Shown here: one piece after another, positions 10,402 through 52,320 of the stretch | How positions within the stretch are numbered: the stretch's first letter is position 1 | Layout: each line of letters begins with the position of its first letter | Assembly (NCBI GenBank): GCA_965197645.1 | Contig: OZ240219.1 | Span: 1,952,001 to 2,016,000, forward strand | Direction of reading: 5' to 3' | Length of the DNA: 64,000 bases | Source of the DNA: Dehalococcoidia bacterium | GTDB taxonomy: Bacteria > Chloroflexota > Dehalococcoidia > Plut-88900 | The notes under the pieces: model-generated | The model's input: only the letters and a program-made list of their open reading frames with translations | Told to the model about the DNA's origin: nothing | Databases searched by the model: none | Program-made: the position numbers and the translations under genes

Positions 10402-10425
10402 ACGCGGCGGGAAAGGAGTTACGAC

Positions 10426-14381: not shown

Positions 14382-14393
14382 GGAGGGCATCCG

Positions 14394-16791: not shown

Positions 16792-16797
16792 AGAAAA

Positions 16798-28340: not shown

Positions 28341-28436
28341 CTCACTCTCCTTTCATGCCGGCCAAGAGGCGCCGACGCCGCCAAGGACAACTTGCTCAAC
28401 TTCCGGTTAGTCATATGTCTGTGCCTCCGCAAGCCA

Positions 28437-29496: not shown

Positions 29497-29769
29497 TCAC
29501 GTTGGTGTCGCCGTTGCAGTCGCCTGTGAGGTTGATGTGGCGGTCGGGAGAGCGGTAGGTGTGGGCGTTGCAGCTTCCGGCACCGAGGTGTTTGCCACAG
29601 CCGATGTGGGAGCATGTGTTGGTTCCGGATTGACCCTCTGCTCTGATGAGGTAGTGGTGCTAGAATCGGTCCCGTTTGAAGGAATGGGCTCTGGCTCATC
29701 GGAACACCCGGTTAGCAGGATGGCGAGCACTGCGATGCTCAGCACCAGACCAATGATTGACTTCGACAT
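29497..29769 (-). pseudogene. Truncated MSKSII-family lipoprotein (signal + stalk only)
   Basis: Near-identical to the N-terminus of 37969..39345 but stops after the Thr/Pro stalk. Confidence 0.7.
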
Positions 29770-29834
29770 TGCTTTCACGTCCTTAAACGTCCCTACATTG
29801 AAGCTTGTTGGCTCCTCATCACTTGACCTTTGGA

Positions 29835-30893
29835 CTAGGGCGGCGTGGCTTGGCCATAGAAATCATCGCCCCAGCACTCGACGGAGCCGTCGGTCCTCAC
29901 CCCGCAGGTGTGGTACCACCAGGCGCTGACCGAGGCGAACTCCCAGGACGGCGCCGTGGCCTGACCATAGCCATCATCGCCCCAGCACACGACGGAGCCG
30001 TCGGTCCTCACCCCGCAGGTGTGGTACCTCCCGCCGCTGACCGAGGCGAACTCCCCGGACGGCGGCGTGGCCTTACCATATGCAACATCGCCCCAGCACT
30101 CGACGGCGCCGTCGGTCCTCGCCCCGCAGGTGTGGAGCACCCCGGCGCTGACCGAGGCGAACTCCCCGCGCGGCGGCGTGGCCTCGCCATAGCCATCAGC
30201 GCCCCAGCACACGACGGAGCCGTCGGTCCTCACCCCGCAGGTGTGGTTACTCCCGGCGCTGACCGAGGCGAACTCCCCGGACGGCGGCGCGGCCTGGCCA
30301 TGTCTGTCCAAGCCCCAGCACTCGACGGAGCCGTCGGTCCTCGCCCCGCAGGTGTGGAAATACCCGGCGCTGACCGAGGCGAACTCCCCGGACGGCGGCG
30401 TGGCCTGGCCATATTTGTCCCGGCCCCAGCATTGGACGGAGCCGTCGGTCCTCACCCCGCAGGTGTGGAGCCCTCCGCTGCTGACCGAGGCGAACTCCCC
30501 GGACGGCGGCGTAGCCTGACCAGCCCAGCTGGACCCCCAGCACACGACGGAGCCGTCGGTCCTCACCCCGCAGGTGTGGGACACCCCGGCGCTGACGGAG
30601 GCGAACTCCTCGGCGGACCTGGTCTTTGGTGCGGCGGCAGTCGCCGTGGCTGTGGGCGTAGCTGTGGCGGTCGGGAGAGCGGCAGGTGTGGGCGTTGCAG
30701 CTTCCGGCACCGGGATGTTTGTCAGAGCCGATGTGGGAGCATGTGTTGGCTCAGGATTGACCCCCTGCTCCGATGAGGTGGTGCTGGAATCGATCTCGTT
30801 CGAAGGATTGGGATCTGGCTCATCGGAACACCCGGTTAGCAGGATGGCGAGGATCGCGATGCTCAGCACCAGACCAATGATTGACTTCGACAT
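29835..30893 (-). CDS. MSKSII-family lipoprotein with seven RCC1-like repeats
   Basis: Lipobox LLTGC; seven 37-aa repeats EFASVSAGxxHTCGVRTDGSVxCWGxxxxGxATPPSG. Confidence 0.88.
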   Translation of the reverse strand: MSKSIIGLVLSIAILAILLTGCSDEPDPNPSNEIDSSTTSSEQGVNPEPTHAPTSALTNIPVPEAATPTPAALPTATATPTATATAAAPKTRSAEEFASVSAGVSHTCGVRTDGSVVCWGSSWAGQATPPSGEFASVSSGGLHTCGVRTDGSVQCWGRDKYGQATPPSGEFASVSAGYFHTCGARTDGSVECWGLDRHGQAAPPSGEFASVSAGSNHTCGVRTDGSVVCWGADGYGEATPPRGEFASVSAGVLHTCGARTDGAVECWGDVAYGKATPPSGEFASVSGGRYHTCGVRTDGSVVCWGDDGYGQATAPSWEFASVSAWWYHTCGVRTDGSVECWGDDFYGQATPP

Positions 30894-31159
30894 TGCTTTC
30901 ACGTCCTTAACTTCCCTAAGTGGAACCTTGCTAACTCCTCTTCGCTTGACCTTTCATCGAATGGGGGGCGGACCGGGTCGCGGAGACCACGTCAACACGG
31001 GCTGTTGCGACCGCCGTCTCTGCTCCGTCGAGCATTGGGATTCCTCGTCTACCGGTACTGGTCATCGCTCCCCTCTCCTAGCGTCGTATGATTGCCTGGA
31101 CACTTCCTTGCCCATGACAAGGCTTGCCGCCCGAAAAGCAGCCCTTGTCAACATAAATC

Positions 31160-31510
31160 GTAGAGAGCTTCCAAGCCGGATATAAGGTGCAAATGTCTAT
31201 TTTGCTCTAGGCATTTATCTAGACATTTGTCTATAGGAATTGCATAGGCAAATGACTACGAGGGGCCTATGCACATGCCGCGGCAGGTCTCAGCCCGGCG
31301 TGTTCAGGAAGCGGTGTGGACGCTCAACGGGACTCCCATCGGCTGACGGTCGGGGAATGGCGGGACGCAGCCGTGAGCGTCGAAATGGCGGCGGCGGTCT
31401 GGAACAAGCCGGAGGCCCCCGCCGTTACAGCAGGGGCCTCGTCGCTGCTCGCTCCGTTACCTGTCGGTCTGCTTCCTCGGTTCCCGGCGGACCGACGGCG
31501 GGGCAAGGCA
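31160..31510 (-). repeat. Left copy of ~340 bp inverted repeat containing promoter/operator array
   Basis: 31189-31268 is the exact reverse complement of 36954-37033 (80 bp); looser similarity extends to about 31510/36727. Confidence 0.9.
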
Positions 31511-31611
31511 GGAGGGCTTGCGGCGCGAACGCTGCGGGGCCGCCTTGCCGGGGGACGTTGGGCGGGCGGTGGAGGCGCTATCGAGTCGTGGGGAGTTGGC
31601 GCGGGAGAAAT

Positions 31612-32277
31612 TCAGCCGAGCTCTCGGTCCACCAGTCCGTTTCGCACGGCCCAGACGACGATCTCCTGCTTGCTGCCGAATCCCAGCTTGTCCTGTATGT
31701 GGTAGATGGTGTTGCGGACCGTCGATGAGCGGTTGCCCCTGGCCTCGGCGATGGCGGCGTACGACATCCCCTGCGCGAACTGCGCGAGTATCTCCTTCTC
31801 CCTCGATGTCAGCTCCTTCCTCCGGGGCGAATCAATGTCCTCCGGCAGGTGGCGCAGCCGCCTGAACACCCGTCTCATCACGTCCCGGGGCATCCGGTAC
31901 TCGCCTCCGGCTACGTCCCTGACCATTGCCAACAGCTGCTCCGTCCCGGTGAACTTCTGAAGGTATCCGTCGGCGCCGGCGGCCACCGCCTCTATGACGG
32001 CGTCCTTCTCGGTGGAAGCAGTCAGCATGAGCACCCTGACGTCCTCCAGGGCGTCTATGATCTCGCGGCACGCATCTATCCCGTCCCTGCCCGGCATCAG
32101 CACGTCCATGATGATGAGGTCCGGGACCACCTCCTTCGCCACCCGCTCCGCCTCCTCGCCGTCCCCGGCGTGTCCCACCACCTCGAACTCGCCGGTCCGC
32201 TCCAGCAGCTGCTGGAGACCGTCACGCATGACCGGGTGGTCATCCACCAGCAAGACTCTGGTCGGGGTCGAAGTCAT
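31612..32277 (-). CDS. NarL/LuxR-family response regulator
   Basis: VLLVDDHPVMRDGL, PDLIIMDVLMP, LMLTAS, GYLQK, LTSREKEIL...TVRNTIYHIQDKLG. Confidence 0.95.
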   Translation of the reverse strand: MTSTPTRVLLVDDHPVMRDGLQQLLERTGEFEVVGHAGDGEEAERVAKEVVPDLIIMDVLMPGRDGIDACREIIDALEDVRVLMLTASTEKDAVIEAVAAGADGYLQKFTGTEQLLAMVRDVAGGEYRMPRDVMRRVFRRLRHLPEDIDSPRRKELTSREKEILAQFAQGMSYAAIAEARGNRSSTVRNTIYHIQDKLGFGSKQEIVVWAVRNGLVDRELG

Positions 32278-32278
32278 T

Positions 32279-33496
32279 TTAGCTCCCTCCTCTCATATGC
32301 CTGTAGGGAAGCTCGCAGGTCACAGTGGTTCTCCATCCGGACCCGCCTGTCTCCACCACCAGCCTGCCGCCCAGCCGCTCGGCGTCCTCCCTCATGTTCC
32401 TGAAGCCCTGGCCGCGCGTTGCGTAGTCATCGGGAAGACCGGTCCCATCGTCGCAAATCGACATCCGCAGTCCGTCGCCCTCGAAGTCGAGGCCGACGCG
32501 GACGTGACTCGCATGGGAGTGGCGGAGGGCGTTGGTCAGGGCGTTGAAGGCGATGGAGAACAGCGCCCCCCGCGTTGCGATGGGCAGGGGCGGTTCGACG
32601 CCCGTCTGCACCATGTCGGCGGGAATGGAGGAGATGGTCGAGAAGGTCGCCGCCAGCGACTCCAGCACCCCGCCAAGCTCCATCCCCTCGAAGATCTCCC
32701 CGATCTCCATCGGGTGCCTCATCTCCCACATCGCCGACCTCGACAGGGCTGAGGTCTCGTCGAGCGTCGACATCAGCTCCTCGTTGGACCGGTCGGCAAG
32801 CTCCTTCGCCCTCTCGATGCCCATCCCTATCAGGTAGGCGGACTGGGCCATCGTGTTGTGGATGGCGTGGGAGAGCTCGATGCGCTCCCGTTGAAGCGTC
32901 CGCTCCCGCTCCACCGCCTCCATCCTCCTGATCCGCTCCACCCTGGAGATCAGGTTGACGACCACCACCACGGTGTACATCCCGGCAACCCGTATGAGCA
33001 GTATCTCCTCGTCATTGGCTGAGAAGTCCAGCCGGGGCTCCACCGCGAGGCAGAGGGCCGCGTAGACGGCCGCCGCCATCGTGACCCAGACGAGGGTGAG
33101 CCTGACCGACCCGAATACCACCGCGAACAGGGCGAGGGACGGGTAGTACCCCACGAAGAAGGGAGACTCGAACCCCCGGTGCGCCGCAACGCCGCCGCTG
33201 AGCATCGCCAGGTCCAGGGCGCTCAGCGCGAGCATCCACCGCCAGGACACGGTCCTCTCCGTGGCGAGCCGGTAGTGGAGGTATCCGTTGGTGGCGAACA
33301 GCAGTATTGCAAGGGCCACGTTCGGCGCGTACACCACCTCGTCGACGTTGAGCGGGTACAGCCAGGCGAACGCGGCAATAGACCAGACGAACCAGCGTCC
33401 CCAGACATAGACCCTAGCCACGCGGCGCAGTTCGCCCGGCTCCGGCAGGTCGAAGCTGTGCAGGAAGGCCGGAAGTGCGCTGGCCGCTGTGCTCAC
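32279..33496 (-). CDS. Membrane sensor histidine kinase (HisKA_3/NarX type)
   Basis: 5-6 TM helices; ERIELSHAIHNTMAQ H-box; NALTNALRHS, DDGTG, GQGFRNMREDAERLGG. Confidence 0.92.
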   Translation of the reverse strand: MSTAASALPAFLHSFDLPEPGELRRVARVYVWGRWFVWSIAAFAWLYPLNVDEVVYAPNVALAILLFATNGYLHYRLATERTVSWRWMLALSALDLAMLSGGVAAHRGFESPFFVGYYPSLALFAVVFGSVRLTLVWVTMAAAVYAALCLAVEPRLDFSANDEEILLIRVAGMYTVVVVVNLISRVERIRRMEAVERERTLQRERIELSHAIHNTMAQSAYLIGMGIERAKELADRSNEELMSTLDETSALSRSAMWEMRHPMEIGEIFEGMELGGVLESLAATFSTISSIPADMVQTGVEPPLPIATRGALFSIAFNALTNALRHSHASHVRVGLDFEGDGLRMSICDDGTGLPDDYATRGQGFRNMREDAERLGGRLVVETGGSGWRTTVTCELPYRHMRGGS

Positions 33497-33712
33497 TGGA
33501 TTCAGGACTCTTCTCCATCAGGTTGGATTACGGCAGATCGCGGCTGGAATGTGATATGTTCCTCTACCGGGAGCGGCGGCCTCAGCCTCGAAATGAGAAG
33601 GTCTAAATAGGCAAAACCCGCCAGGTGGAAATACCCGTCCAGCAGTCATTCATATCCTAGAATTTAGTCCAATGAACTGAAGGCATCAAGGGCGTATGAA
33701 CCACACCGCTTA

Positions 33713-33726
33713 TAGGCATGTGTCTA
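33713..33726. promoter_or_regulatory. Palindromic operator TAGGCATGTGTCTA
   Basis: Matches the TAG(G/A/T)CANNTG(C/T/A)CTA boxes in the two inverted repeats; lies in the divergent gap between the kinase and 33938. Confidence 0.5.
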
Positions 33727-33937
33727 TGCCATGGACTCTAGGATGTGGCCGGATTTCGGCGTACTGTTGTGGAAACTAGCTGATTCGTGCTCCTCATATA
33801 GGTTGAGGCTTATCACGTTGCCTTCTAGAATGCAGCGACATTTACCGTAGCGGGACCCACATGATGATGGAATACGATAACACGGACACAATCGTTATGA
33901 TGGGCGAGACCGGCGCGACGATCCAGCAGGTGCCGGA

Positions 33938-34369
33938 TTGATTCGGACCGTCCTGCTCATCGGGGTCGTGGCTCTCGCCGCAGTGGTCATGACCGGGTGC
34001 GAGCGTTTGTTTCCTGACGTCGAGGACTGGATTGCCGACTCGGAGACGCTCGCACGACGCTTCGACGCCCGGCTGGGCGACCTGAAAGAGTGCGTCGAGG
34101 AGGACAGCTGCGAAGAGGCGCTTGATGCGGAGAGAGGCGTCTTCGTCATGTGCTCGTGGGTCATGTCGCGTGGAGATCTTGCTCCGGAGGGTTTCGAGGC
34201 GGCGGAGTGGCCGCGGTTCGACACGCTCTGCGAGGGGCTGGAGGGGGTGCTGGAGCTGCCGAAGGCGGGCGCGCTCCTGCGCATTGAGGACCTCCAGGAT
34301 GAGACAGGCCGCATCAGTGAGGGAATCCGTGACGACATCGAACCCCGAGAGCGGGAAAAGGCGGAATGA
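33938..34369 (+). CDS. Small lipoprotein
   Basis: Hydrophobic signal with lipobox VMTGC. Confidence 0.65.
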   Translation: MIRTVLLIGVVALAAVVMTGCERLFPDVEDWIADSETLARRFDARLGDLKECVEEDSCEEALDAERGVFVMCSWVMSRGDLAPEGFEAAEWPRFDTLCEGLEGVLELPKAGALLRIEDLQDETGRISEGIRDDIEPREREKAE

Positions 34370-34825
34370 GACGAAGGTCAGGAACTGGTTGAGACTGCCT
34401 AGCGCCCATCGGAATGGATGTCACCGTGGGCACCATCCCCGGAGTCCAGCATCAGTTCCGACAATAGCCACCGGCCCACTTTTCCCCATAGCCGTCCCAA
34501 GGTCTCGCGAGGTCACCCTCAACCTCACTCGCGTCCCGCCATCGTCCCTTATGAGATCAGGAGCCACATCACACATTCAGACATCCTTTAGGACCCTGTC
34601 AATGCCGAAGCCGAGGGGCTCGGCAGTTTCACGGGCTGCCCAGCCACATCCCGAAACCCTTCTACCTGTCATCCACGTTGACCTACCTGGAAAGGTCCGA
34701 ATAGGTATCCAGGCCTGCCGCTTCCAAATATGCGGTTCTTATGACGCTTGCCGGGATCGAGCGGACTCTCGTGCAAGGGGGCAATTCACGGCCCGGAGCC
34801 GGATGGGTCGCCCCCTTTGAGCAAT

Positions 34826-36421
34826 ATGCTCAAGCTATATCCACGAAAGGGCCGCCAATTGGCTTTCGCCTTCGGCTTGCGAGACAGCCTGCTCAAAACC
34901 CTTCACCCGACCGCGCGGATTGCGCTGTCGTGTTTGATGGCCGTAGCCGTGATTACGGCATGTGACAAAGGAGATATGCCTGCTCCGACTCAGGAGCCAA
35001 CAGCCACCACGACGCGGGAACCGACGCCCACGCCAATTCAGACCACCCGTCCCGGCGCGGCAGGGCTGGACGACCCTCTATTTCCCGAGCTGGGCAACGG
35101 CGGTTATGACGTTTCCCGCTACACGGTGACCCTCGACATCGACGTGGGAGCCAACGAGATCTCGGGCCGGGCTCGAATCGAAGCCGACGCTACACAGAAC
35201 CTCTCCTCGTTCAATCTGGACTTTCGAGGCTTAATGGTTACGCAGGTCGCCGTGGATGGCCGCCCAGCCGACCACTCTCGCGCCGGATACGAGCTGACAA
35301 TCGAGCCCGGTGCGCCAATCCCCGCAGGAACGACCTTCAAAGCCACGGTCTCTTACGAGGGTCAGCCTTCGACCAGCTCCGTGCCTGGAACAAGTCTCCT
35401 GACAGGCTGGATAGACTACGAGACCGGGATAATTGCGTACGGCGAACCCTGGGGAGCGTCGCACTGGTTCCCAGTCAATGAGCATCCATCCGATAAAGCC
35501 CTGTACACCTTCATCATCACCGTGCCCGAGCCCTATGAAGTGGCCTCAAACGGCGAATTGACCAGTACCACCGACCACGGGGAGACTGTTACGTACGTAT
35601 GGGAAAGCATCCACGAGATGGCCAGCTATCTAACGTTCCTGGCGGTCGCTCAGTTTGACGACGTCGCCGATGAAAGTCCTGGGGGGATAACCGTCGTTGA
35701 CTCGGTGGAAACGTCGATAGACGAATCAGCAAGGGATAGTCTGGACAGCGTCCCTTTGATAGTCGATTTCTTCAGTGAACTGTTCGGGCCATATCCATTC
35801 GAGTCCACCGGCTCCGTCGTCATCGACGAGGCGATTCCGCCGCTGGAAACCCAACCCCGACCCGTCTACGGGATACGGGCCCTGGAGAACTTCGGCGACA
35901 GGTTGATAGCCCACGAGTTGGCGCACCAGTGGTTTGGGAACCTGCTTACTCCCGCGTCGTGGCAGGACTTGTGGCTGAACGAGGGGTTCGCCACCTACGC
36001 TGAGTGGCTGTGGCTGGACCACAAGTCCGGCGGCGGCTGTTTCGAGGAGTTCTGGGAGATGGTCTGGCGACCTGTCTATGGGCCGCCGGCGAATCCCGAC
36101 CCCGACACCCTTTTCAGCGGCAGTGTGTATGCGAGAGGCGCAATGGCCCTCCACGCACTGCGCATTGAAATCGGCGACGAGGCGTTTTTCAAGACTCTGC
36201 GTGAATATATTTCCCGCCACGCCGGGGGTAACGTGACAACCGAGGACTTTGTGGTCGTGGCTCAGGAGATGGCGGGCAGGGAACTGGACGACCTTTTTGA
36301 TTCCTGGCTCTTTGGTGAGACCACTCCTCCTCCGCCGGGAATGAACGGCGGTCTGGGCAATCAGCCAACTCCTTCTCCAGGTCGGGCTATTGGGGAGAGG
36401 TGTCTACACGGACATCGGTAA
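34826..36421 (+). CDS. M1-family zinc aminopeptidase, probable lipoprotein
   Basis: DPLFPELGNGGYDV, WFPVNEHPSDKA, HELAHQWFGN...LWLNEGFATYAE, VYARGA; lipobox-like ITAC; start uncertain. Confidence 0.9.
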   Translation: MLKLYPRKGRQLAFAFGLRDSLLKTLHPTARIALSCLMAVAVITACDKGDMPAPTQEPTATTTREPTPTPIQTTRPGAAGLDDPLFPELGNGGYDVSRYTVTLDIDVGANEISGRARIEADATQNLSSFNLDFRGLMVTQVAVDGRPADHSRAGYELTIEPGAPIPAGTTFKATVSYEGQPSTSSVPGTSLLTGWIDYETGIIAYGEPWGASHWFPVNEHPSDKALYTFIITVPEPYEVASNGELTSTTDHGETVTYVWESIHEMASYLTFLAVAQFDDVADESPGGITVVDSVETSIDESARDSLDSVPLIVDFFSELFGPYPFESTGSVVIDEAIPPLETQPRPVYGIRALENFGDRLIAHELAHQWFGNLLTPASWQDLWLNEGFATYAEWLWLDHKSGGGCFEEFWEMVWRPVYGPPANPDPDTLFSGSVYARGAMALHALRIEIGDEAFFKTLREYISRHAGGNVTTEDFVVVAQEMAGRELDDLFDSWLFGETTPPPPGMNGGLGNQPTPSPGRAIGERCLHGHR

Positions 36422-36603
36422 CAGCCCCACGGTCCAACTATATCTTCACCACGCCGCTCGTCAGCTACCCGATGCCAGATGGAGGGAGGCGGGAAAAGGC
36501 GGAGGCATGATTGTGAGGGACGGAGGGCAGGGTGCTGGCGGAACCTTTCTTGAGTCACGCTGCCCCGGCCCACCACAATTGCCGGGGAGGGCCTTGGTGG
36601 AAC

Positions 36604-36663
36604 CTCACAGAGCCCCAACCACATCTCGAAGACCGTTCTTTCTACCGTCAAAATAGGCTCACC
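36604..36663. repeat. Direct repeat copy 1 (att-like)
   Basis: About 49/61 identical by manual alignment to 46574-46634. Confidence 0.75.
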
Positions 36664-36726
36664 AGACTTGATGAAGTCAAGAACCTTAACCTTGGGGGTC
36701 AGGTTGGCGGTGTATTTTGACGCCGA

Positions 36727-37066
36727 CCTTGCCCCGCTGGCGGTCCGCCGAGAATCAGAGGCAGGCCGACAGGTTACGGAGCTAGCAGCGATGAGGCCCC
36801 TGCTGTAACGACGGGGCCTTTGGCTTGTTTCAGACTGCCGCCGACGCCCCCCGATCCCTCCCCATTCCCTCTGATAGGCGATGCGGGTCCGATTGAGCGT
36901 CCAAGTGGTTTGCTGACTACGCTGGGCTGAGACCTGCCGCGGCATGGACATAGAGGCCCCTCGTAGTCATTTGCCTATGCAATTCCTATAGACAAATGTC
37001 TAGATAAATGCCTAGAGCAAAATAGACATTTGCTCCTTACATCCGGCCTGGAAGCTCAGTACGATG
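36727..37066 (+). repeat. Right copy of inverted repeat containing promoter/operator array
   Basis: Boxes at 36964, 36989, 37001 and 37023; TACGAT -10-like hexamer at 37060. Confidence 0.9.
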
Positions 37067-37164
37067 GGCCAGGATGCAGCGGCAGGCGGTGGGAGAACCA
37101 CCTGTTGCCACTCCCTAACCATCACCAACCGTTCTATGCAATAGAATAGAATTAGGAGGACAAG

Positions 37165-37593
37165 ATGCAACTTCGAGTTGCAGGTTTGGCAACAGGAGCG
37201 CTCGGCGCTGTTCTGCTGGTGATTGGCGCGCTTCTCCCCTGGCTAACGGTGCATGACCAGTCACACAATGGGCTAGACTTGGAGGACGGCTGGCTCACCG
37301 TAGGACTAGGGGTAGCGGCTTTGGTCATCCTGTTGTTGGTTACCATCTTCGGGCGGACTGGGAGATGGATGGCCCTCATAGGTGGCTTTCTGGTCTTGGC
37401 AATGGGCGTTCTCAACACATTCGCAGCGGTGATAGATATGGATCTCGGCACCGCTGACGCGCTCCTAGGCGCCTCCGTTGCTTATGGGCTGTATGTTGTC
37501 CTTATCGGGGGCATCCTTATGGGGCTCGCGGGCTTGGCCCTTCTCGTCTTAGGAGCCAAGGGTAGTCTCGGCCGGACAGCTTCCTCCTCCTGA
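37165..37593 (+). CDS. Four-TM membrane protein
   Basis: AGGAGG RBS; LLPW...G...DGW and GLYVVLIGG hydrophobic segments. Confidence 0.75.
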   Translation: MQLRVAGLATGALGAVLLVIGALLPWLTVHDQSHNGLDLEDGWLTVGLGVAALVILLLVTIFGRTGRWMALIGGFLVLAMGVLNTFAAVIDMDLGTADALLGASVAYGLYVVLIGGILMGLAGLALLVLGAKGSLGRTASSS

Positions 37594-37797
37594 CCCGGGT
37601 GGAAGGCATGACAAGGCCGTCCAGCCCAACTCCTCCTTCCGGGAGGTCCCAGTTCGGAAACTCTCTAGTTCACCCGCAAGCTGGAGCACGCCGGCGCCTT
37701 CAAGTCCCCGCTCGGGGCGGAACGGCGTCAGAGTCGTCTCCATTACCGGCAGGCCCGCGGGTTGACCGCACTCGGAGATGCCAAATCGGCGCAAGTA

Positions 37798-37904
37798 GAG
37801 TTTGCTTCGGTCAGCGCCGGGTGGCTCCACACCTGCGGGGTGAGGACCGACGGCACCGTCGGATGCTGGGGCCGCAGTAATTTTGGCCAAGCTTACCCAC
37901 CTAA
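37798..37904 (+). pseudogene. Orphan terminal RCC1-like repeat
   Basis: EFASVSAGWLHTCGVRTDGTVGCWGRSNFGQAYPP* with no signal peptide; followed by the same spacer that follows the 29835 gene. Confidence 0.75.
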
Positions 37905-37968
37905 TCCAAAGGTCAAGTGATGAGGATCCAACAAGTTTCAAGTTAGGGGCGTTAAGGACGTGAAAGCA

Positions 37969-39345
37969 ATGTCAAAGTCAATCATTGGTCTGGTGCTGAG
38001 CATCGCGGTTCTCGCCACCCTGCTAACTGGATGTTCCGATGAGCCAGATCCCATTCCTTCAAACGGGACCGATTCTAGTCCCACTACCTCATCGGAGCAG
38101 GGGATCAATCCGGAACCAACACATGCCCCCACATCGGCTGTGACAAACACCGCCGCTCCGGAAGCCGCAACGCCCTCAGAAACGCCGACTGTCACCGCAC
38201 GGGAAGCGGCGACGCCCACACCTGCCGCTCTCCCAACCGCCACGGCAACGGCCGCAGCCACTGAGCCATATCCCGTTCCTTTGTGGCAAGGGCCTTTTTT
38301 CGATCTGATGAAACTCATCCCGTTAACCCAGGACAGCCGTGCCTTCGTTTCAATTAGCGATTACACCCTCGCACGGGAAGCAAACGGCATTCAGGCCCCG
38401 GCGGAGGACGCCAACGCCGAGGACCTGGAAGAATACCTGCGAGAGCTCCAACTAACAGGACTGGCCGGAGGGCCCTGGATAAGTGGATTCACACGTGAAT
38501 CCATGGCTCAACTAGAGCAGAAGTACCTGGGCTTCGGCGTGGGAGACGTCGAGCGGAGTATCCTGGTTGGAGAACCACCCTACACCCTGGAGGCGGTAAG
38601 TGGCCGCTTCGATCCCGAGACCACCGATGCATCCCTCGCCGCCTGCGCCGAGTGCGATAAGCCCGACGTACAAGAACACTTGGGAGTGAAGTTCTACAGC
38701 TGGGGAGAGGACTACAAGCCAGACTTCAAGAAGAGACTGCAACCCCCGGCATACGATGTATTAGGCAGAGGCGGCCGGATTGCCGTTCTGGACTCTGTTG
38801 TGTTCAGAACACTTGGGACTGCGGGCATGAGGTCGCTGATCCGCACCTATGGTGGAAACGGAGACTCCCTCGCAGACGACCCTGACTTGGCGTTGGCTGC
38901 TGGCGCATTACAGAATCTCGGCGTCTATTCGGCATTACTGGCTGGGGACGTGGAGAGGTTTACCGACCCTCTTGATTCCCTCCTCAGCGCCGAAGAGCAG
39001 GAACAGCTACAGAAAATGATGGACCAACTACAGATGGAAGCAGGAACTACCTCGGATAAGTACAGCGTCCTGGGGGCGGGCGTTGCAAAGGATGCGGACG
39101 GCTTTGTCACGATCTTGGTCTTTGTCTACGAGGACGAGGGTGCGGCAAGCCGCAGCGTGCAGGACTTCGAGGAGAGGTTAGCCAACGGGCGGAGCATGTT
39201 AACGGAGCAGCCCTGGACCGAATACTTCCCAGAGGGTGAGGTATGGAATGACGGGAGGGCGCTGATCGCCAGGTTGCGCACCGAGCACCCCCGGATCTGG
39301 GAGCAGATGGTGTTGTCTGTGGATTCCCTGCTGTGGCAAGAATAG
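37969..39345 (+). CDS. MSKSII-family lipoprotein with uncharacterised globular payload
   Basis: Lipobox LLTGC; Thr/Pro stalk; ~350 aa domain of unknown function. Confidence 0.8.
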   Translation: MSKSIIGLVLSIAVLATLLTGCSDEPDPIPSNGTDSSPTTSSEQGINPEPTHAPTSAVTNTAAPEAATPSETPTVTAREAATPTPAALPTATATAAATEPYPVPLWQGPFFDLMKLIPLTQDSRAFVSISDYTLAREANGIQAPAEDANAEDLEEYLRELQLTGLAGGPWISGFTRESMAQLEQKYLGFGVGDVERSILVGEPPYTLEAVSGRFDPETTDASLAACAECDKPDVQEHLGVKFYSWGEDYKPDFKKRLQPPAYDVLGRGGRIAVLDSVVFRTLGTAGMRSLIRTYGGNGDSLADDPDLALAAGALQNLGVYSALLAGDVERFTDPLDSLLSAEEQEQLQKMMDQLQMEAGTTSDKYSVLGAGVAKDADGFVTILVFVYEDEGAASRSVQDFEERLANGRSMLTEQPWTEYFPEGEVWNDGRALIARLRTEHPRIWEQMVLSVDSLLWQE

Positions 39346-39540
39346 CTGAGGTGCAAGACGTAGCTGCCGCACCCGTTCGGGGCGTCTGAACGGAATTGGG
39401 TATCCGAACCTTACATCCGGCTTGGAGGCTCACTACGATTTAGGTTGGCGAGGGCTGCTTTTCGGGCGGCAAGCCTTGTCATGGGCGCCGAAAAGTCCAG
39501 GCAATCATACGGCGTTAGGAGATAGGAGAAAGGAGCGAAA

Positions 39541-41760
39541 ATGTCGAAGTCCATTACAAGCAGTGTGCTGCTCGCGGGCGCGATACTCCTCGCCATTCTC
39601 CTGCCCGGATGTTCCGATGAGCCGACCCCTTCGCCGGTGGCCAAGATTACTCCTAGCTCCACGGCCACCGCAACCCTGACGCCAGCTCCCATAGCTACAC
39701 CATCACCCGCTCCTACGGCAACGGTCACCGCAACCCTGACGCCTACGGCTACTCCTACACCCACTCAGACCGCGATGCCCACGGCCACTCCGACGCCCGT
39801 TCCGACTGCAACACCGACCGCCACGCCCACTCAGACCGCCACGCCCACAGCCACTCCGACGCCCACTCCAGTTCCCACGGCTACACCCACTCCGACTCCT
39901 ACACCAACGCCAACTCCCACGCCTCCTCCCGATCTAGTGATTGACACTCCAACGCTGAGCGACAGCAGTCCGATGACGGACCAAGCCCTCACGCTAAGAG
40001 TCACCGTGGGGAATCGGGGCAGCGGTCCCTCGGGGCCCACTACGCTCACCTACTACCGCTCCGACGACTCGACGATCACGCCCGCCGATACCGAGGTGGG
40101 CACGGACGGGGTTGCCGGGCTCGGTGCATCGGAGAGCGGCGCAGAGTCAATCCTCACCTATGCGCCGTCCACACCGGGCGCCTATTACTACGGCGTCTGC
40201 GTGGACTCGATGCCCGGCGAGTCCGATACAACCAACAACTGCTCCGCCGTGGCGGCTGCAACCGTTTCGGAGTTCGACATTGACAATCTTCCGTGGGTCG
40301 CCGACGAAGTAACCGGCGACGAGCGGCAAGCGATGGACCACATTCGCGTCCTCGCTACAATCGACCGTTCGATGGCCCAGCGAGTAGCGGGCTCACCGTG
40401 GCTCTCCGACGGAGTAACCGAAGATGAGCTGCGGATGTTGGATGACCTCCTTGACTTGGCCGGAGTCCACTCGGAAATAGCCGTCTTGGTGACAACCGCG
40501 CCCGATGAGACAGGGCGTCTCATTGAGGCCTTCCTGTCTTCACTGCAATGGATACTCTCCAGTGACCCTGGCAGGTCGGAGCAGTTCCTGGGTCAACCAT
40601 GGTTCCAAGATGGGCTGACGGAAGAGGAGGCTGCGCTGATCGTAGTGTTGCAAGACGCCGCGGATTCAGAGGACGTATTCCGGGACCTCCTCCAGGGTGG
40701 CCATGTGCGGTCGGACACGATCTCCCTGCCCCTGGCTGGTGAGGTGGACCTGTTTGCAGTCGGCAGGTCGGAGCTGTGGCTGGAGGGAACACTTGAAAGA
40801 ATGGCTTTCGCAGTCGAGTCGATGGAGGCTTTCATGGGCACACCCTGGCCACAGCCCGACGTCATCGTGCTTCTGGAACTCGAAAGTGACATGGGTTATG
40901 GCGCAGCCGGGTGGAACTCCGGCACTCACGTTGTGGCGAAGAACACGTCCAAGGATCTCACCTACCACGAGTTGGCCCACTTCTATTTTGGCGGCAACGT
41001 TCCGTGGTGGTTATCAGAAGGCTCGGCGGACTTCCTGATGCTCCACATCAATCGGTTGACCGGAGACGAATTTCCCTTTGGCTCTCTCTATATCCATGAC
41101 CAGATTCGCATACTTGAAGTGTGCGCTCCTCATGGCTCAGCCAATGTCCAGGGGTTCATCGAGACCGGGACGGGGGACTCCTATTGTCCGTATCTGCTTG
41201 GGCGTCAGTTCCTGGCGGGAATGTATCGAACCCTAGGGCATGAGGTGGTTTCGTCAGCTCTGCGGGAGTTATACGAGACAGGTGAGGGCATTGGCAGGAC
41301 CGCGACGGAAGACGAGATTTACCGGGCGTTTCTGACGAACACCCCGTCATCGCAGCGGAATGACTTTCAGTTCTGGTATCACTGTCTTCATGGCCGCTCA
41401 ATTCCCGGCTATACCGCTGCAACCAAGCCCGCGGCCCCGCCCGACAACAGAGGCGCACTGGTTGCGCTCTACAACGCCACCAACGGTCCGGGCTGGAAGA
41501 ACAGTGAGAACTGGCTGAGCGAGGCTCCCCTCGACGAATGGCATGGCGTGGCCACCGACTGTGACGGCTCTGTTATTGGGCTGAAGCTGATAGAGAATCA
41601 GTTAACCGGCCCTATACCGCCGGAATTGGGCAGGCTATCCAATTTAATAGAGCTAAACCTCTGGGGCAATCAGCTGACCGGCTGCGTGCCGGCAACACTG
41701 AAGGTCAGCGAAACCAACTACACAGAAGGACTGGGTTTGGAGGTCTGCACGGACTCCTAG
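39541..41760 (+). CDS. MSKSI-family lipoprotein: PT stalk, CARDB-like domain, HEXXH metallopeptidase, short LRR
   Basis: Lipobox LLPGC; PDLVI...[10 protein letters not shown]...ESDTTNNCS; YHELAH...WLSEGSADF; [14 protein letters not shown]...[17 protein letters not shown]. Confidence 0.82.
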
Positions 41761-41861
41761 CCACCCCAGAACTTGAGATGGCCAGGAAAGAGACTGTGAC
41801 TCGCGGGAGGTTACCGCCTCCGACTAATGAGGAGGCAGGCCCACTTAAGGACGTGAAAGCA

Positions 41862-43652
41862 ATGTCGAAGTCAATCATTGGTCTGCTGGTGAGCGCCGCG
41901 GTTCTCGCCATGCTCCTGCCCGGATGTTCCGATGAGCCGACCCCTTCGCCGGTGGCCAGGGTTCTTCCTAGCGCCACTGCTACACCGATATCCGTTCCTT
42001 CGGCAACGGCCACTCAGACCGCCACGTCCACAGCCACTCCGACGCCCGTTCCCACGGCAACGCCCACTCAGACCGCTACGCCCGCAGCCACTCCGACACC
42101 CGTTCCCACGGCAACGGCCACTCAGACCGCCACGTCCACAGCCACTCCGACGCCCGTTCCCACGGCAACGCCCACTCAGACCGCTACGCCCGCAGACACT
42201 CCGACACCCGTTCCCACGGCAACAGCCACTCAGACCGCCACGTCCACAGCCACTCCGACGCCCGTTCCCACGGCAACGCCCACTCAGACCGCTACGCCCA
42301 CCGCCACAGCAACCTCAGAGGCGACTGCAACGGCGACACCTGCGCCTGAAGCACGCGATCTCTACCGGGCGATTCGTGAGGGTAATCGTGACGCTGTTCG
42401 TAATCTCGTGGCCGCCGGCATGGATGTTAACGCAACAGTTCAAGAAAGTTCAGGCCTCTTAAATCCCTCGAGCCAAACCGGGCCGCTCCTCTACTGGGCG
42501 ATTCGGAACGGCGACCCTGAAATTGTCTGGATTCTCGTGGACGCAGGCGCGGATGTTAACGCTACATTTCGACTACGTTCAAGCAGCCTGTTCGGCTTAA
42601 TCGATTCAAGCACCACGGTCACCGCACTCCTTGACTATGCGATTCGGGGAGGCAAGGTTGAAATTACCCGGATTCTCGTGGACGCAGGCGCGAAGTACGA
42701 CGATGGCGTGGACCCTCTGCATCTTGCGGCTGAATACAAACAAACTAAGAAACAAGATGCACTGAATTGGGCACTGCTGAATGCGGTGGAAGACATGGAT
42801 CTGGCAAAGGTCCAAGCGCTACTGGTCGAAGGAGCCGACATAAATGGGAAGGTCCATGGCCAGACGCCACTGCAGATAGCTGCGGAAAGCAACGAAAACC
42901 CGCTGGTGATCCAGGCTTTGCTGGACGCCGGGGCCGATATCAATGCGAAGGACGTATGGGGCCAGACGCCACTGCAGATAGCTGCGGAAGGCAACGAAAA
43001 CCCGCTGGTGATCCAGGCTTTGCTGGACGCCGGGGCCGATATCAATGCGAAGGACACATGGGGCCAGACGCCACTGCAGATAGCTGCGGAAAGCAACGAA
43101 AACCCGCTGGTGATCCAGGCTTTGCTGGACGCCGGGGCCGATATCAATGCGAAGGACGTATGGGGCCAGACGCCACTGCAGATAGCTGCGGAAGGCAACG
43201 AAAACCCGCTGGTGATCCAGGCTTTGCTGGACGCCGGGGCCGATATCAATGCGAAGGACACATGGGGCCAGACGCCACTGCAGATAGCTGCGGAAAGCAA
43301 CGAAAACCCGCTGGTGATCCAGGCTTTGCTGGACGCCGGGGCCGATATCAATGCGAAGGACACATGGGGCCAGACGCCACTGCACCATGCGGCGGGAAGC
43401 AACGAAAACCCGCCGGTGATCCAGGCTTTGCTGGACGCCGGGGCCGATATCAATGCGAAGGACACATGGGGCCAGACGCCACTGCAGATAGCTGCGGCAA
43501 GCAACGAAAACCCGCTGGTGATCCAGGCTTTGCTGGACGCCGGGGCCGATATCAATGCGAAGGACACATGGGGCCAGACGCCTCTGGAAGTAGCAAAGGA
43601 CGAAAGAAACTCTGAGGCCAGCAAGTTGCTTGAAGAAGCGGCTGCTTCTTGA
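41862..43652 (+). CDS. MSKSII-family lipoprotein with ankyrin repeats
   Basis: Lipobox LLPGC; Thr/Pro repeats; [32 protein letters not shown] repeats. Confidence 0.9.
42858..43571 (+). repeat. Seven near-identical 102-bp tandem repeats (ankyrin units)
   Basis: Unit starts GGCCAGACGCCACTGCA; alternating variants give a 204-bp higher-order period. Confidence 0.9.
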
Positions 43653-43741
43653 AGCAACCTGCCTTTGCCCACCATCACATCTGGCCTGTGACAGGTCAAG
43701 GGATGCCGGGCTGACAAGTTTAAGGAAAGGACGTGGAAGCA

Positions 43742-46405
43742 ATGTCAAAGTCAATCATTGGTCTGGTGCTGAGCATCGCAGTATTCGCCATCCTGCTAAC
43801 CGGGTGTTCCGATGAGCCAGATCCCATTCCTTCAAACGGGACCGATTCTAGCACCACCTCATCGGAAGCTACGGAAGCTGCAACGCCCGCAGACACGTCG
43901 ACTGCCGCCGCACCAAAGACCAAGTCCGCCGGGGAGTTCGCCTCGGTCAGCGCGGGGGAAAGACACACCTGCGGGGTGAGGAGCGATGGCTCCGTTGAAT
44001 GCTGGGGCTGGGATGTATTTGGCCAATCCATGCCTCCGTCAGGGGAGTTTGTGTCGGTCAGCGCCGGGGAGGGCCACACCTGCGGGTTGAGGCGGGATGG
44101 CTCCGTCGAGTGCTGGGGATTGAATTTCTTTGGTCAAGCCACCCCGCCGTCCGCGGAGTTCTCCTCCATCAGCGCCGGATGGAACCACACCTGCGGGGTG
44201 ACGAGGGATGGTTCCGTCGAGTGTTGGGGCTCGAATTTCTATGGTCAAGCCACGCCGCCGTCCGCGGAGTTCGCCTCCGTCAGCGCGGGGGCATTCCACA
44301 CCTGCGGAGTCAAGCTTGACAGCTCCGTCACCTGCTGGGGGTCCAATGAAGGCGACTTTGGAGCGGAGCTTGGGCAGGCCACGCCGCCGTCAGGGGAATT
44401 CGCCTCGATCAGTGCCGGAGGATTCCACACCTGCGGAATGAGGACCGACGGCTCCGTCGAGTGTTGGGGAGACAACGCTGATGGCCGGACCACACCGCCG
44501 TCAGGGGAATTCGCCTTGATCAATGCTGGGGGATTCCACACCTGTGGGGTGAAGCGCGACGGCTCCGTCGAATGCTGGGGTCATGATGGCTATGGCCGGA
44601 CCACGCCGCCGTCCGGGGAGTTCGCCTCGGTCAGCGCCGGGGGGTTCCACACCTGCGGGGTGAGACCCGACGGCTCCGTCGAATGCTGGGGTCATGATGG
44701 CTATGGCCACGCCACTCCGCCGTCCGGGGAGTTCACCTCCGTCAGCGCCAGCAATGTCCACACCTGTGGGGTGAGGACCGACGGCTCCGTCGAATGCTGG
44801 GGCAATGATGATAACGGCGAGGCCACTCCGCCGTCCGGGGAGTTCACTTCGGTCAGCGCTGGGGAGTTCCACACCTGCGGAGTGATGCGCGACGGCTCCG
44901 TCGCCTGCTGGGGCGATGATGAACATGGCGAGGCCACTCCGCCGTCCGGGGAGTTCGCCTCGGTCACCGCCGGGGGGTTCCACACCTGCGGTGTGAGGAC
45001 CGACGGCTCCGTCGAATGCTGGGGCAATGATGATAACGGCCAGGCCACTCCGCCGTCCGGGGAGTTCGCCTCGGTCACCGCCGGGGGGTTCCACACCTGC
45101 GGGGTGAAGGCCGACGGCGGCGTCGAATGCTGGGACAATGATGATAGCGGCGAGGCCACTCCGCCGTCCGGGGCGTTCGCCTCGGTCAGCGTCGGATGGA
45201 ACCACACCTGCGGGGTGAGGACCGACGGCTCCGTCGAATGCTGGGGCCGCGACAAATATGGAGAAGCCAAGCCTCCGTCCGGGGAATTTACCTCTGTCAG
45301 TGCTGGGGTCCGGCACACCTGCGGGGTGAGGACCGACGGTTCAGTCGAATGCTGGGGCTCCAACGAAAATTCCGATGAACACGAGGTTGGCCAAGCCACG
45401 CCGCCGTCCGGGGAGTTCGCCTCGGTCAGCGCTGGGGCGTTCCACACCTGCGGGGTGAGGCGGGACGGCTCCATCGCGTGCTGGGGTGAACAGGCCCGCG
45501 GGCTGACGGCTCCGCAAGGAGAAGCCAAAGCGGAGCAAGTAGAGTTCATCTCGGTCAGCGCCGGGTTTTTTCACATCTGCGGGGTGAGGACCGACGGCGC
45601 CGTGGAATGCTGGGGACTCAACGAGGATGACAAGGGCAATGTTGTTGGTCAGGCCACACCGCCGTCCGGGGAGTTCGCCTCGGTCAGCGCCGGGGGAGGC
45701 CACACCTGCGGGGTGAGGACCGACGGTTCAGTCGAATGCTGGGGACTCAACGAGGATGGCGAGGCTGCGCCGCCGTCCGGGGAGTTCACCTCCGTCAGCG
45801 CCGGGGCGTTCCACACCTGCGGGGTAAGGCGCGACGGCACCGTCGAGTGCTGGGGATTCAACGAGGATCACGAGGGCAATGTTGTTGGTCAGGCCACGCC
45901 GCCGTCCGGGGAGTTCGCCTCGGTCAGCGCCGGGACGTTCCACACCTGCGGGGTGAGGACCGACGGCGCCGTCGAGTGCTGGGGATTCAACGAGGATGGG
46001 GACAGCAATGTTGTTGGTCAAGCCACGCCGCCGTCCGGGGAGTTCGCCTCGGTCAGCGCCGGGTTTTTCCATACCTGCGGGGTGAGGACCGATGGCGCAG
46101 TCGAATGCTGGGGCTTCAACAAGGATGACAAGGGCAATGTTGTTGGTCAGGCCACACCGCCGTCCGGGGAGTTCGCCTCGGTCAGCGCCGGGACGTTCCA
46201 CACCTGCGGGGTGAGGGCCGACGGCTCCGTCGAATGCTGGGGCTCTAATGATGATTTCGGCGGCAATGTTGTTGGTCAAGCTACTCCACCGCCAGGGGAG
46301 TTCGCTTCGGTCAGCGCCAGGTGGCTCCACACCTGCGGGGTGAGGACCGACGGCTCTGTCGAATGCTGGGGGTTAAACGAGGATGGCCAAGCCACTCTGC
46401 CCTAA
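43742..46405 (+). CDS. MSKSII-family lipoprotein with 21 RCC1-like repeats
   Basis: Lipobox LLTGC; 21 repeats of 37 or 43 aa counted, consistent with three 7-bladed propellers. Confidence 0.9.
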   Translation: MSKSIIGLVLSIAVFAILLTGCSDEPDPIPSNGTDSSTTSSEATEAATPADTSTAAAPKTKSAGEFASVSAGERHTCGVRSDGSVECWGWDVFGQSMPPSGEFVSVSAGEGHTCGLRRDGSVECWGLNFFGQATPPSAEFSSISAGWNHTCGVTRDGSVECWGSNFYGQATPPSAEFASVSAGAFHTCGVKLDSSVTCWGSNEGDFGAELGQATPPSGEFASISAGGFHTCGMRTDGSVECWGDNADGRTTPPSGEFALINAGGFHTCGVKRDGSVECWGHDGYGRTTPPSGEFASVSAGGFHTCGVRPDGSVECWGHDGYGHATPPSGEFTSVSASNVHTCGVRTDGSVECWGNDDNGEATPPSGEFTSVSAGEFHTCGVMRDGSVACWGDDEHGEATPPSGEFASVTAGGFHTCGVRTDGSVECWGNDDNGQATPPSGEFASVTAGGFHTCGVKADGGVECWDNDDSGEATPPSGAFASVSVGWNHTCGVRTDGSVECWGRDKYGEAKPPSGEFTSVSAGVRHTCGVRTDGSVECWGSNENSDEHEVGQATPPSGEFASVSAGAFHTCGVRRDGSIACWGEQARGLTAPQGEAKAEQVEFISVSAGFFHICGVRTDGAVECWGLNEDDKGNVVGQATPPSGEFASVSAGGGHTCGVRTDGSVECWGLNEDGEAAPPSGEFTSVSAGAFHTCGVRRDGTVECWGFNEDHEGNVVGQATPPSGEFASVSAGTFHTCGVRTDGAVECWGFNEDGDSNVVGQATPPSGEFASVSAGFFHTCGVRTDGAVECWGFNKDDKGNVVGQATPPSGEFASVSAGTFHTCGVRADGSVECWGSNDDFGGNVVGQATPPPGEFASVSARWLHTCGVRTDGSVECWGLNEDGQATLP

Positions 46406-51411: not shown

Positions 51412-52320
51412 ATGATTGAACGATTTGCAGGCCAAAAAGGGCGCAGCACTTCCATCGAGGCGCTTAGAAACCAGTCAGCACTCCTTGGAGAAGCTGGCCT
51501 TGGAGAGGCAGTCTACGATCAGGCTGAAATCCTTGGATTTGAGCCAGGCGAAACGATCATAGAAGAATCAGATCCAACCAACGACGTATACTTCATCCTG
51601 TCCGGAATCGTCTCGATTAGAGTAAATGGGCGGGAAATAGCTGTGAGAACACCTGGACAACACGTGGGGGAGATGGCTGTCCTGGATCCAGGGCAACGAA
51701 GATCCGCATCCGCCGTTGCAGAGGATGACGTGGTGGTCGCCCGCGTGGACGCGTTGACACTAACCACAATCGGTGAATCTTTTCCACAACTATGGAAAAA
51801 TATCGCCCGTCAGCTTTCTGAACGACTTCGGCAAAGGAACCGTCACGTTCTTCCCGTCAATCCTCGCCCCGTTCTGTTCGTGGGCTGTTCAACTGAGTCT
51901 CTCAATATTATTCGTGAAATCCAGATTGCCCTGGGCCACGACCCGATCATCGTCAAGCTGTGGACGGACGGCATCTTTAATGCTGGCAGCTTTCCACTAG
52001 AGTCTTTGGAGCGGGAGCTAGAAAAAGTCGATTTTGCCGTCCTCGTCCTTTCACCAGACGATATCGTGATTAGCCGAGACTCCGCAACCGATGCGCCTCG
52101 GGACAACATTGTGTTTGAGTTGGGATTCTTTATGGGGGCCTTGACTCGCTCGCGCACTTTCCTACTTGTTCCACGGGGCGTCGACTTCAAGCTGCCGACC
52201 GACTTGGTGGGAATAACTCCTTTGACGTACAGCCCTGAGATGGAGCCAGCTACTGCCGCCGCTGTGGCGGGGGCGTGCACGGAGTTGAGAAACCTCATAC
52301 TGGCAATCGGACCACGTTGA
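51412..52320 (+). CDS. pycTIR: Pycsar effector: cNMP-binding domain + CAP12/Pycsar TIR NADase
   Basis: YFILSG...GQHVGEMAVLDPGQRRSAS; LFVGCSTESL, VDFAVLVLSPDD, PRDNIVFELGFFMGAL, KLPTDLVGIT. Confidence 0.88.
   Translation: MIERFAGQKGRSTSIEALRNQSALLGEAGLGEAVYDQAEILGFEPGETIIEESDPTNDVYFILSGIVSIRVNGREIAVRTPGQHVGEMAVLDPGQRRSASAVAEDDVVVARVDALTLTTIGESFPQLWKNIARQLSERLRQRNRHVLPVNPRPVLFVGCSTESLNIIREIQIALGHDPIIVKLWTDGIFNAGSFPLESLERELEKVDFAVLVLSPDDIVISRDSATDAPRDNIVFELGFFMGALTRSRTFLLVPRGVDFKLPTDLVGITPLTYSPEMEPATAAAVAGACTELRNLILAIGPR

Follow-up and report, generated by a model that had tools for sequence, protein, structure and literature searches.

How do proteins that have nothing else in common come to share one lipoprotein leader? 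The question is raised by six neighbouring genes, g1 to g6, which occupy positions 29497-46405 of a 64-kb stretch of DNA (the window) from a Dehalococcoidia bacterium (GenBank assembly GCA_965197645.1, contig OZ240219.1, positions 1,952,001 to 2,016,000). The genome consists of a single closed contig of 3.21 Mb with 60.8% G+C, and the locus is chromosomal. In what follows, G000 denotes the genome of the window, while G009 and the L-numbered loci denote relatives. Eukaryote-like repeat proteins, some of which are encoded here, are characteristic of bacteria that live in symbiosis with sponges and other animals, and to our knowledge their delivery to the host interface without injection systems is poorly understood. 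We consider it likely that the six genes belong to a lineage-specific family of membrane-anchored surface lipoproteins with a common gene front end, that their cargoes were joined to it by recombination within the front end or the adjacent stalk, and that the family is probably controlled by a two-component system. The locus would thus suggest one route in a Dehalococcoidia lineage: lipid anchoring on a stalk, behind a common and probably co-regulated front end.

One leader, unrelated cargoes

All six open reading frames (ORFs) begin with MSKSI(I/T) and contain L(T/P)GCSDEP, as the preliminary description of this DNA had stated. A 39-nucleotide (nt) motif with two R positions, which comprises ribosome site and start, matches five of the genes without a mismatch (29746-29784 and 30870-30908 on the minus strand; 37954-37992, 41847-41885 and 43727-43765 on the plus strand) and was not found in 100 shuffles. 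The alignment also bears out the upstream spacer attributed to four genes, AGGTCAAG, which precedes g1, g2, g3 and g6. These four genes form leader type A and are 86-94% identical in DNA over 140-386 nt; type B is represented by g4. A lipoprotein signal consists of a basic n-region and a hydrophobic h-region, followed by a lipobox of the consensus [LVI][ASTVI][GAS]C. Such a signal is present in all type A leaders (MSK, 16 hydrophobic residues and LTGC). The genome encodes both Lgt (PF01790 at G000:1669486-1670199, 169.5 bits) and signal peptidase II, LspA (PF01252 at G000:100030-100431, 125 bits). Lgt and LspA would most likely turn the predicted products into proteins held by a lipid anchor in the cytoplasmic membrane, with the stalk keeping the cargo off the cell.

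Behind the stalk the genes differ entirely, as had been claimed: Pfam detected seven RCC1 stretches in one gene, no family in two, CARDB plus a weak LRR in the fourth, ankyrin in the fifth and 21 RCC1 stretches in the last. Gene g1 (29497-29769, minus strand; 90 amino acids (aa)) comprises leader and Thr/Pro stalk only and has no Pfam family. In g2 (29835-30893, minus strand), type A leader and stalk are followed by seven RCC1_2 stretches (111-nt period, 7.0 copies), and in g6 (43727-46405, plus strand, start codon 43742) a type A leader with a shortened stalk carries 21 of them. A type B leader (LLPGC) and a long Thr/Pro stalk head g4 (39541-41760, plus strand), where CARDB, a HELAH region and a plant-type LRR follow. 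This gene had been described as CARDB-peptidase-LRR, of which CARDB and the LRR stand, the latter with a weak Pfam match; the 'peptidase' comes down to the HELAH motif, which has no family match. Plant-type LRR ectodomains were matched by the C-terminus of g4 in a sequence search of the PDB, whose matches were confined to the LRR end and the low-complexity stalk. NCBIfam returned nothing meaningful for g1, g3, g4, the G009 cargo and the proteins P0003, P0020 and P0027.

The cargo of g3 (37969-39345, plus strand; type A leader and long stalk) comprises 355 aa (38278-39342) and has no Pfam or NCBIfam model, but relatives are numerous: the family, which is uncharacterised, comprises 936 representative clusters at E <= 0.001. 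Its structure model is confident (predicted local distance difference test, pLDDT, of 94), and the best structural match is Treponema pallidum TP0453 (PDB 3k8g and others; E 1.9e-6, template modelling (TM) score 0.42 by query and 0.55 by target). TP0453 is a lipoprotein, as the g3 product is predicted to be. The likeness is one of cargo fold only: the two share 8-9% sequence identity, and the g3 cargo is about 100 residues longer.

Gene g5 (41845-43652, plus strand, start codon 41862) combines the ribosome site and signal peptide of type A with a type B lipobox and stalk, and carries ankyrin repeats. These repeats (42858-43586; 102-nt unit, 7.1 copies, 96% alike) and the stalk (41985-42307; 108-nt unit, 3 copies, 95% alike) both appear to have expanded in tandem only recently, and their copy number could vary from strain to strain.

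A cassette search across the genome and related metagenome-assembled genomes (MAGs), with the cargoes tabulated, revealed many cargoes. The leader occurs in G000 at this one locus only, so the notion of a genome-wide system had to be given up. A distant cousin at G000:3072250 (L022) is 48% identical, has a GCSDGP lipobox and a similar stalk, and heads a frame of 508 codons. Elsewhere in the genome (G000:2048000-2052500), an RCC1 lipoprotein with an ordinary, unrelated signal peptide adjoins a solute-binding lipoprotein gene. A crude lipobox scan of the genome gave 77 candidate lipoproteins. CSDE after the cysteine was limited to five leader genes among these (g1 was too short for the count), and a T/P/S/A-rich stretch after the cysteine was present in at least 23 candidates outside the locus. 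The stalk is therefore a habit of the lineage, and the conserved leader is the special part.

Among 12 genomes of the family, G009 carries one leader copy (87% aa identity) with a DUF3472 cargo. A scan of one genome per species yielded 15 loci in 14 other Dehalococcoidia MAGs, with one to five leader genes per 20-kb locus, and 41 leader proteins (71-94% identity) were present in a metagenome protein collection. Pfam was applied to 32 of the 35 locus ORFs of the relatives, leaving out L023:14249, L025:19612 and L026:9989, which were short or cut. About 18 cargo architectures were found on the leader. Repeat cargoes comprise RCC1, RCC1 with Peripla_BP_6, RCC1 with the g3-type domain, ankyrin, LRR, LRR with ankyrin, FN3 with ankyrin and LRR, and PPC with LRR; others are Big_2 with M19 dipeptidase and metallophosphatase, Big_2 with CarboxypepD_reg, DUF3472 and PD40. 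At least four further cargo types have no family, and the g3-type domain alone occurs in 17 of 81 proteins. Both Pfam and the proteins of the relatives thus agree with one constant leader on unrelated cargoes, joined within the stalk. Ankyrin, LRR or RCC1 repeats combined with an export signal are found among the leader proteins, and to this extent the payloads are eukaryote-like, as had been proposed; but dipeptidase/phosphatase and solute-binding domains and others occur as well. The variety of cargoes indicates that the leader is a lineage-wide export module which is not tied to eukaryote-like repeats. It also provides a simple sequence handle with which the displayed repertoire can be listed in related genomes.

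The spread over independent genomes bears on a trivial explanation, in which the repeated leaders would be an assembly artefact produced by mis-joined or collapsed repeats. Repeats often cause mis-assembly of MAGs, and several leader proteins in the database look frameshifted. However, the window lies in a closed single contig, its leader copies differ by 7-14% and each is continued by a coherent cargo without a break in the reading frame, and 14 independent assemblies show the same design. We consider an artefact practically negligible as an explanation.

Three database hits, L038-L040 (Oleiphilus, Streptomyces and Dyadobacter), were 38-52% identical over part of the leader and were taken as chance or unrelated matches. 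In public sequencing runs, the best share of locus words was 0.29-0.33, in runs filed under coded organism names, and none reached half. Runs labelled as sponge metagenome contained 0.05-0.07 of the locus words, small shares that only hint at a sponge habitat.

Cargo exchange in front end and stalk

Repeated recombination through the cassette, which had been suspected from the window, is supported by three observations: mixed signal and stalk types, varied junction depths and a fusion that distinguishes two near-identical loci, L023 and L036. We tallied 40 leader genes, 6 from the window and 34 from relatives, omitting a hit of 51 aa in L035 and also L023:13002, whose fn3 cargo stands behind another kind of signal peptide. 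Signal type A was paired with stalk type a in 22 genes and B with b in 9. The remaining nine had mixed or minor pairings (A-b in g5 only, C-b in two, B-a in one, A-c in two, B-c in two and C-a in one), and P0041 is an additional A-b combination beyond this tally. Signal and stalk types switch at the invariant lipobox-SDEP codons. The chimeric nature ascribed to g5 is therefore real, with the switch from A to B at lipobox and stalk; but its upstream homology begins only at -18, and its signal peptide is an 'LLVSAA' subtype of type A that is common in relatives.

The depth of the junction varies even for one and the same cargo. The g3-type domain is joined after the full stalk in g3, and in other proteins after SSEQG or after CSDEPDPIP; it also follows RCC1 repeats, from which a remnant of stalk separates it. 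Within L025, the front ends of an ankyrin gene and a g3-type gene are 96.8% identical over 409 nt (-274 to +134), compared with 72-83% for the other front-end pairs of the same genome.

The clearest case is provided by L023 and L036. Positions 2421-6885 of L023 and 6394-10660 of L036 are 99.3-99.6% identical over 4.2 kb, a similarity which ends 173 nt into the leader gene; the next 2.7 kb are 94.3% identical. In L036, the leader stands on a gene with an HExxH cargo, which is followed by a separate Big_2 lipoprotein gene with its own signal peptide. In L023, the same leader is joined via the Thr/Pro stalk directly to the Big_2 cargo. Judged by sequence, the difference is a cargo swap by deletion between stalks in near-identical DNA. 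Comparison between genomes, at this level, demonstrates that new members have arisen by recombination in the front end or stalk. Duplication, deletion, and illegitimate or short-homology recombination in this region would join a leader to another cargo. Cargo swaps at the stalk would thus represent natural domain shuffling by a reusable export module.

Traces of such events are also present within the window. Two modules had been singled out in the preliminary description, an empty one (g1) and an orphan one at 37798. The former consists of leader and stalk as stated, but its similarity to g3 (residues 1-109) extends beyond the g1 stop codon, with two TGA inside, and g1 is better described as a remnant whose cargo is lost. 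The latter exists, although not as a free-standing module: 37798-37968 (plus strand) is an RCC1 relic, that is the 3' end of an RCC1 gene, with intergenic spacer and ribosome site, and it is a copy of the g2-g1 junction (37798-38178 versus 29942-29560, 87% identity over 386 nt). Homology past the g1 stop and the relic copy together indicate that g1 and g3 derive from one tandem, an RCC1 gene followed by a g3-type gene, which was duplicated in inverted orientation. Just before the relic, a stretch of 87 nt (37669-37755) has copies at four other sites of the genome with 78-85% identity.

An ordinary, old family of tandem paralogues, in which one lipoprotein was duplicated and the C-terminal parts diverged without recombination at the leader, would also place the genes in a cluster at a single locus. 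The divergence of the leaders would suit it too: synonymous divergence (dS) among the type A leaders of the window is 0.08-0.33, and that of orthologues between genomes is 0.14-0.54 (0.14-0.17 for the g3 cargo, 0.29 for the kinase described below and, between G000 and G009, 0.54 for a neighbouring ThiF-like gene). But RCC1 propellers, ankyrin and LRR repeats, an M19 dipeptidase, a solute-binding domain and the TP0453-like fold are unrelated to each other, so that none of these cargoes can have arisen from another by divergence. In addition, signal and stalk types are mixed, junction depths vary, and the L023/L036 fusion is a recombination event. Taken together, these points make a plain paralogue family very improbable.

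A different alternative is programmed shuffling at high frequency, where inversions or deletions between leaders would move the promoter-bearing front end among cargoes within a population. Inverted leader copies are available for this (g1 and g2 on the minus strand, g3 to g6 on the plus strand; 29560-29786 versus 37952-38178 at 91%), the promoter-like module is kept by some genes only, and a leader-only remnant (g1) and an RCC1 relic exist. L023 and L036, with near-identical flanks and unlike cargo, fit as well. Alternative joints were moreover found in public contigs from four runs, none of them labelled as sponge metagenome: 31099-39494, between opposite strands, in three runs of three studies, and 41839-39539 and 38156-44613 in one run each. 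These joints, however, rest on contigs of 200-500 nt from mixed relatives at 90% likeness, and fixed differences between species would fit them equally well. Searching the 28 ORFs of the window for recombinase families (E <= 1e-5) gave none. None of the four PF00589 and five PF00239 matches of the genome falls inside 1952001-2016000; thus the window holds no tyrosine or serine recombinase, and the nearest one lies about 51 kb before its start. The leader copies are merely 86-94% identical, with a dS like that of orthologues, and they are not homogenised within the genome, as the four window leaders require four changes in the tree. Finally, every one of the genes is equipped with a start codon, a ribosome site and a signal peptide of its own. 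We regard programmed shuffling as unlikely. A cassette divergence like that of an old duplication had been named beforehand as speaking against the recombination proposal; leader copies as diverged as orthologues are what we found, and this counts against its active-shuffling part. The locus is best read, from these comparisons, as a case of evolutionary modularity with turnover between close loci, reshuffled over evolutionary and near-strain time, and not as a demonstrated programmed switch.

Transfer between genomes was also considered. In a mobile 'symbiosis island', front end and cargoes would be passed among co-resident Dehalococcoidia, and the conservation of the leader would reflect recent transfer rather than function. 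L023 and L036 are one-genome-per-species entries and nevertheless 99.3-99.6% identical over 4.2 kb. The linked kinase and regulator share 91-95% and 82-99% aa identity in seven of eight loci, while the neighbouring ThiF-like gene has a dS of 0.54. Defence and surface genes abound in the window (Rad52-like, RadC, methylase, E1/E2, TIR-cNMP, where cNMP stands for cyclic nucleoside monophosphate, and cadherin giants). On the other hand, neither an integrase or transposase nor a tRNA boundary was found in the window, and the flanks in G000 and G009 are syntenic with about 82% identity, which suggests that the position of the locus was inherited vertically. An island of this kind seems improbable to us; it would be compatible with a lipoprotein family built by recombination and would add a route of spread.

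The front end and the linked two-component system

The part shared between genes extends further than first described. According to cross-genome homology, the full front end reaches from about -618 to +255 relative to the g2 start codon. Among the 17 genes of relatives tested, nine have front-end homology to -608 to -642, and in the other eight it is shorter, being cut at -60 to -419 or entering the neighbouring gene. In the window, the full front end of g2 (30894-31536, minus strand) measures about 0.62 kb and comprises an A-specific 5' region, a promoter-like block and an AT-rich operator region, in which three 14-mer palindromes are located (31208-31258). A second upstream module (36727-37065, plus strand) with three palindromes (36964-37014) precedes a small membrane-protein gene (37165-37593) and g3. 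A partial one (39408-39528, plus strand; 87.6% identity to 31188-31068), with promoter-like block and 5' leader and lacking the palindromes, lies directly 5' of g4. All module copies contain the same promoter-like block, CTTACA and TACGAT separated by 18 nt. No tRNA was predicted in the window by ARAGORN and no Rfam family reached the gathering threshold within 24000-48000, so the long upstream module is explained by no known RNA. In the 5' to 3' direction, the front end would pass from a palindromic AT-rich operator through the promoter-like block and 5' leader to the ribosome site; its coding part would consist of a Sec/lipoprotein signal peptide with the lipobox cysteine and, behind it, a Ser/Thr/Pro stalk.

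The 14-bp palindrome, TAGNCAWWTGNCTA, has eight hits in the window versus 0.09 expected. Three of them stand before g2, three before the 37165/g3 unit, one before the kinase gene (33713-33726) and one, with one mismatch, at 28408-28421, which is 68-81 nt ahead of a secreted-protein gene (26769-28340, minus strand). Across the genome, the leader locus accounts for all four exact matches and for 8 of the 11 that have at most one mismatch. The gene at 26769-28340 is possibly a further member of the regulon.

Between the minus-strand genes (g1, g2) and the plus-strand genes (g3 to g6) lies a two-component pair: a response regulator with receiver domain and GerE/LuxR DNA-binding domain (31612-32277, minus strand) and a histidine kinase with a membrane N-terminus (32279-33496, minus strand). 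This linkage recurs in relatives. The kinase is found within 10 kb of leader genes in 8 of 15 loci, and the same eight also contain a regulator that is close in sequence (>=56% identity). Seven of these show the high kinase and regulator identities given above; in the eighth, L035, identity is 55-56%. In G009, the pair stands directly ahead of the sole leader gene.

Nearly every leader gene of the relatives is preceded by the upstream module, which in the window was kept only by g2, the 37165/g3 unit and g4, whereas g1, g5 and g6 are without it. This retention suggests g2-g1, 37165-g3 and g4-g5-g6 as the likely transcription units. The preliminary description had proposed a co-regulated repertoire. 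The shared upstream module, the locus-specific palindrome and the adjacent two-component system make this plausible, and the genes probably form a local regulon run by the adjacent pair through the palindromes. In such a regulon, histidine kinase and response regulator would control the whole gene set by way of these sites. The linked pair and the palindromic sites thus define a regulatory circuit that can be tested.

Some findings weigh against the reading of these genes as a co-regulated lipoprotein family assembled by recombination. The promoter-like block reaches a score of 8 out of 12, and the consensus promoter scan passed over it, giving 5 sites versus 3.6 expected and none at the conserved block; the promoter is accordingly only an inferred one. 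We infer the link between regulator and operator solely from adjacency and motif distribution. The lipobox of the type B leaders in g4 and g5 is LPGC (LLPGC), with Pro at -2, and conforms only loosely to the consensus. Since many short database proteins with the leader seem to contain frameshifts, assembly errors may account for some of the 'truncated' members. L023 and L036 come from a collection with one genome per species, and their 99.5% identity may mean transfer of the locus between species and not divergence between strains. The leader tree (23 rows, 133 columns, no starred branch) is poorly resolved: labelled by genome it needed 17 changes versus a shuffled mean of 17.7, and labelled by cargo 10 versus 11.7. 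That is, the leader alignment is too short for the recombination events to be dated from the tree.

A more far-reaching proposal, which we hold tentatively and consider considerably less probable than the family itself, joins all parts into a 'plug-in' platform. Here a two-component switch would sense a cue from host or matrix and act through the palindromes, the conserved N-terminus would serve as a signal, and recombination would capture cargo domains, eukaryote-like ones among them, with turnover between closely related genomes. The dN/dS (ratio of non-synonymous to synonymous divergence) of the leader is about 0.34-0.40; in the platform, the ~40 residues that directly follow the lipid-modified cysteine (dN/dS ~0.4) would act in sorting, tethering or glycosylation. 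If true, eukaryote-like proteins would be displayed on the surface without the type III or type IV secretion systems that are usually invoked.

Related systems and the wider locus

A published description of this leader was not found in the literature on sponge symbionts, Chloroflexi and lipoprotein families. The closest known analogues appear to be the Erp lipoproteins of Borrelia, with their upstream homology box (UHB), and the Vpma/Vsp systems of Mycoplasma. In Borrelia burgdorferi, the Erp lipoproteins (OspE-related, OspF-related and Elp) combine the UHB with similar leader peptides, and their mature parts fall into distinct host-interacting subfamilies; Elp are named as 'OspE/F-like leader peptide' proteins (PMC7002432, PMC12242104). 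Here, too, mature lipoproteins that differ from one another have an upstream promoter box and a leader peptide in common, which makes the likeness one of kind. Unlike the erp genes, which reside on cp32 prophage plasmids of a diderm spirochaete, the present genes form a chromosomal island in Dehalococcoidia. Moreover, the shared part additionally takes in some 40-80 mature stalk residues, the cargoes include eukaryote-like repeats and enzymes, and a two-component system is linked.

In Mycoplasma, the clustered genes of the vpma (M. agalactiae), vsp (M. bovis) and vsa (M. pulmonis) loci are conserved in their 5' untranslated region and signal peptide and diverge in the mature protein. In vsa, a segment with promoter, ribosome site and the start of the coding sequence is put in front of silent 3' ends. 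Switching relies on a site-specific recombinase encoded at the locus (Xer1, Mbr or HvsR), and there is a single promoter (PMC2268961). In both kinds of locus, lipoprotein genes lie in a cluster and keep their 5' region and signal peptide while the mature parts diverge, but the window holds no site-specific recombinase at the locus, and it has several promoter-like modules instead of one promoter. By analogy, the locus seems to work like Erp, lacking the recombinase that defines the Mycoplasma loci.

Of the eukaryote-like proteins of sponge symbionts (ankyrin, LRR, TPR), those with ankyrin and LRR are over-represented in Chloroflexi that live with sponges, where they are thought to mediate host interaction (PMC6306507); the leader genes carry ankyrin, plant-type LRR and RCC1 cargoes. 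In contrast to our locus, PMC6306507 has no mention of 'lipoprotein' or 'RCC1' and describes no shared leader. The combination of a constant N-terminus, swappable C-termini and orphan modules also brought polymorphic toxins to mind; this reading was dropped because Pfam revealed no toxin or immunity families among the cargoes.

Surface proteins are abundant throughout the window. Giant secreted proteins are encoded near the leader genes at 19636-25161, 54679-57537 and 57601-63648, all on the minus strand. One of these giants (1841 aa) combines fn3 with an internal PPDK_N domain, which is phosphoenolpyruvate-utilising and ATP-binding, and two are cadherin-repeat proteins of 953 aa and 2016 aa. 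The flanks of the window (4278-17613 and 51412-52317) resemble a defence and mobile-gene island. They encode a Rad52-like protein, RadC, a DUF6094/N6 methylase, a large helicase-like ORF and a prokaryotic E2 together with a ThiF-like E1; farther out, a cNMP-binding TIR protein that resembles Pycsar effectors is present. In G009, another defence set occupies the corresponding side of the kinase gene.

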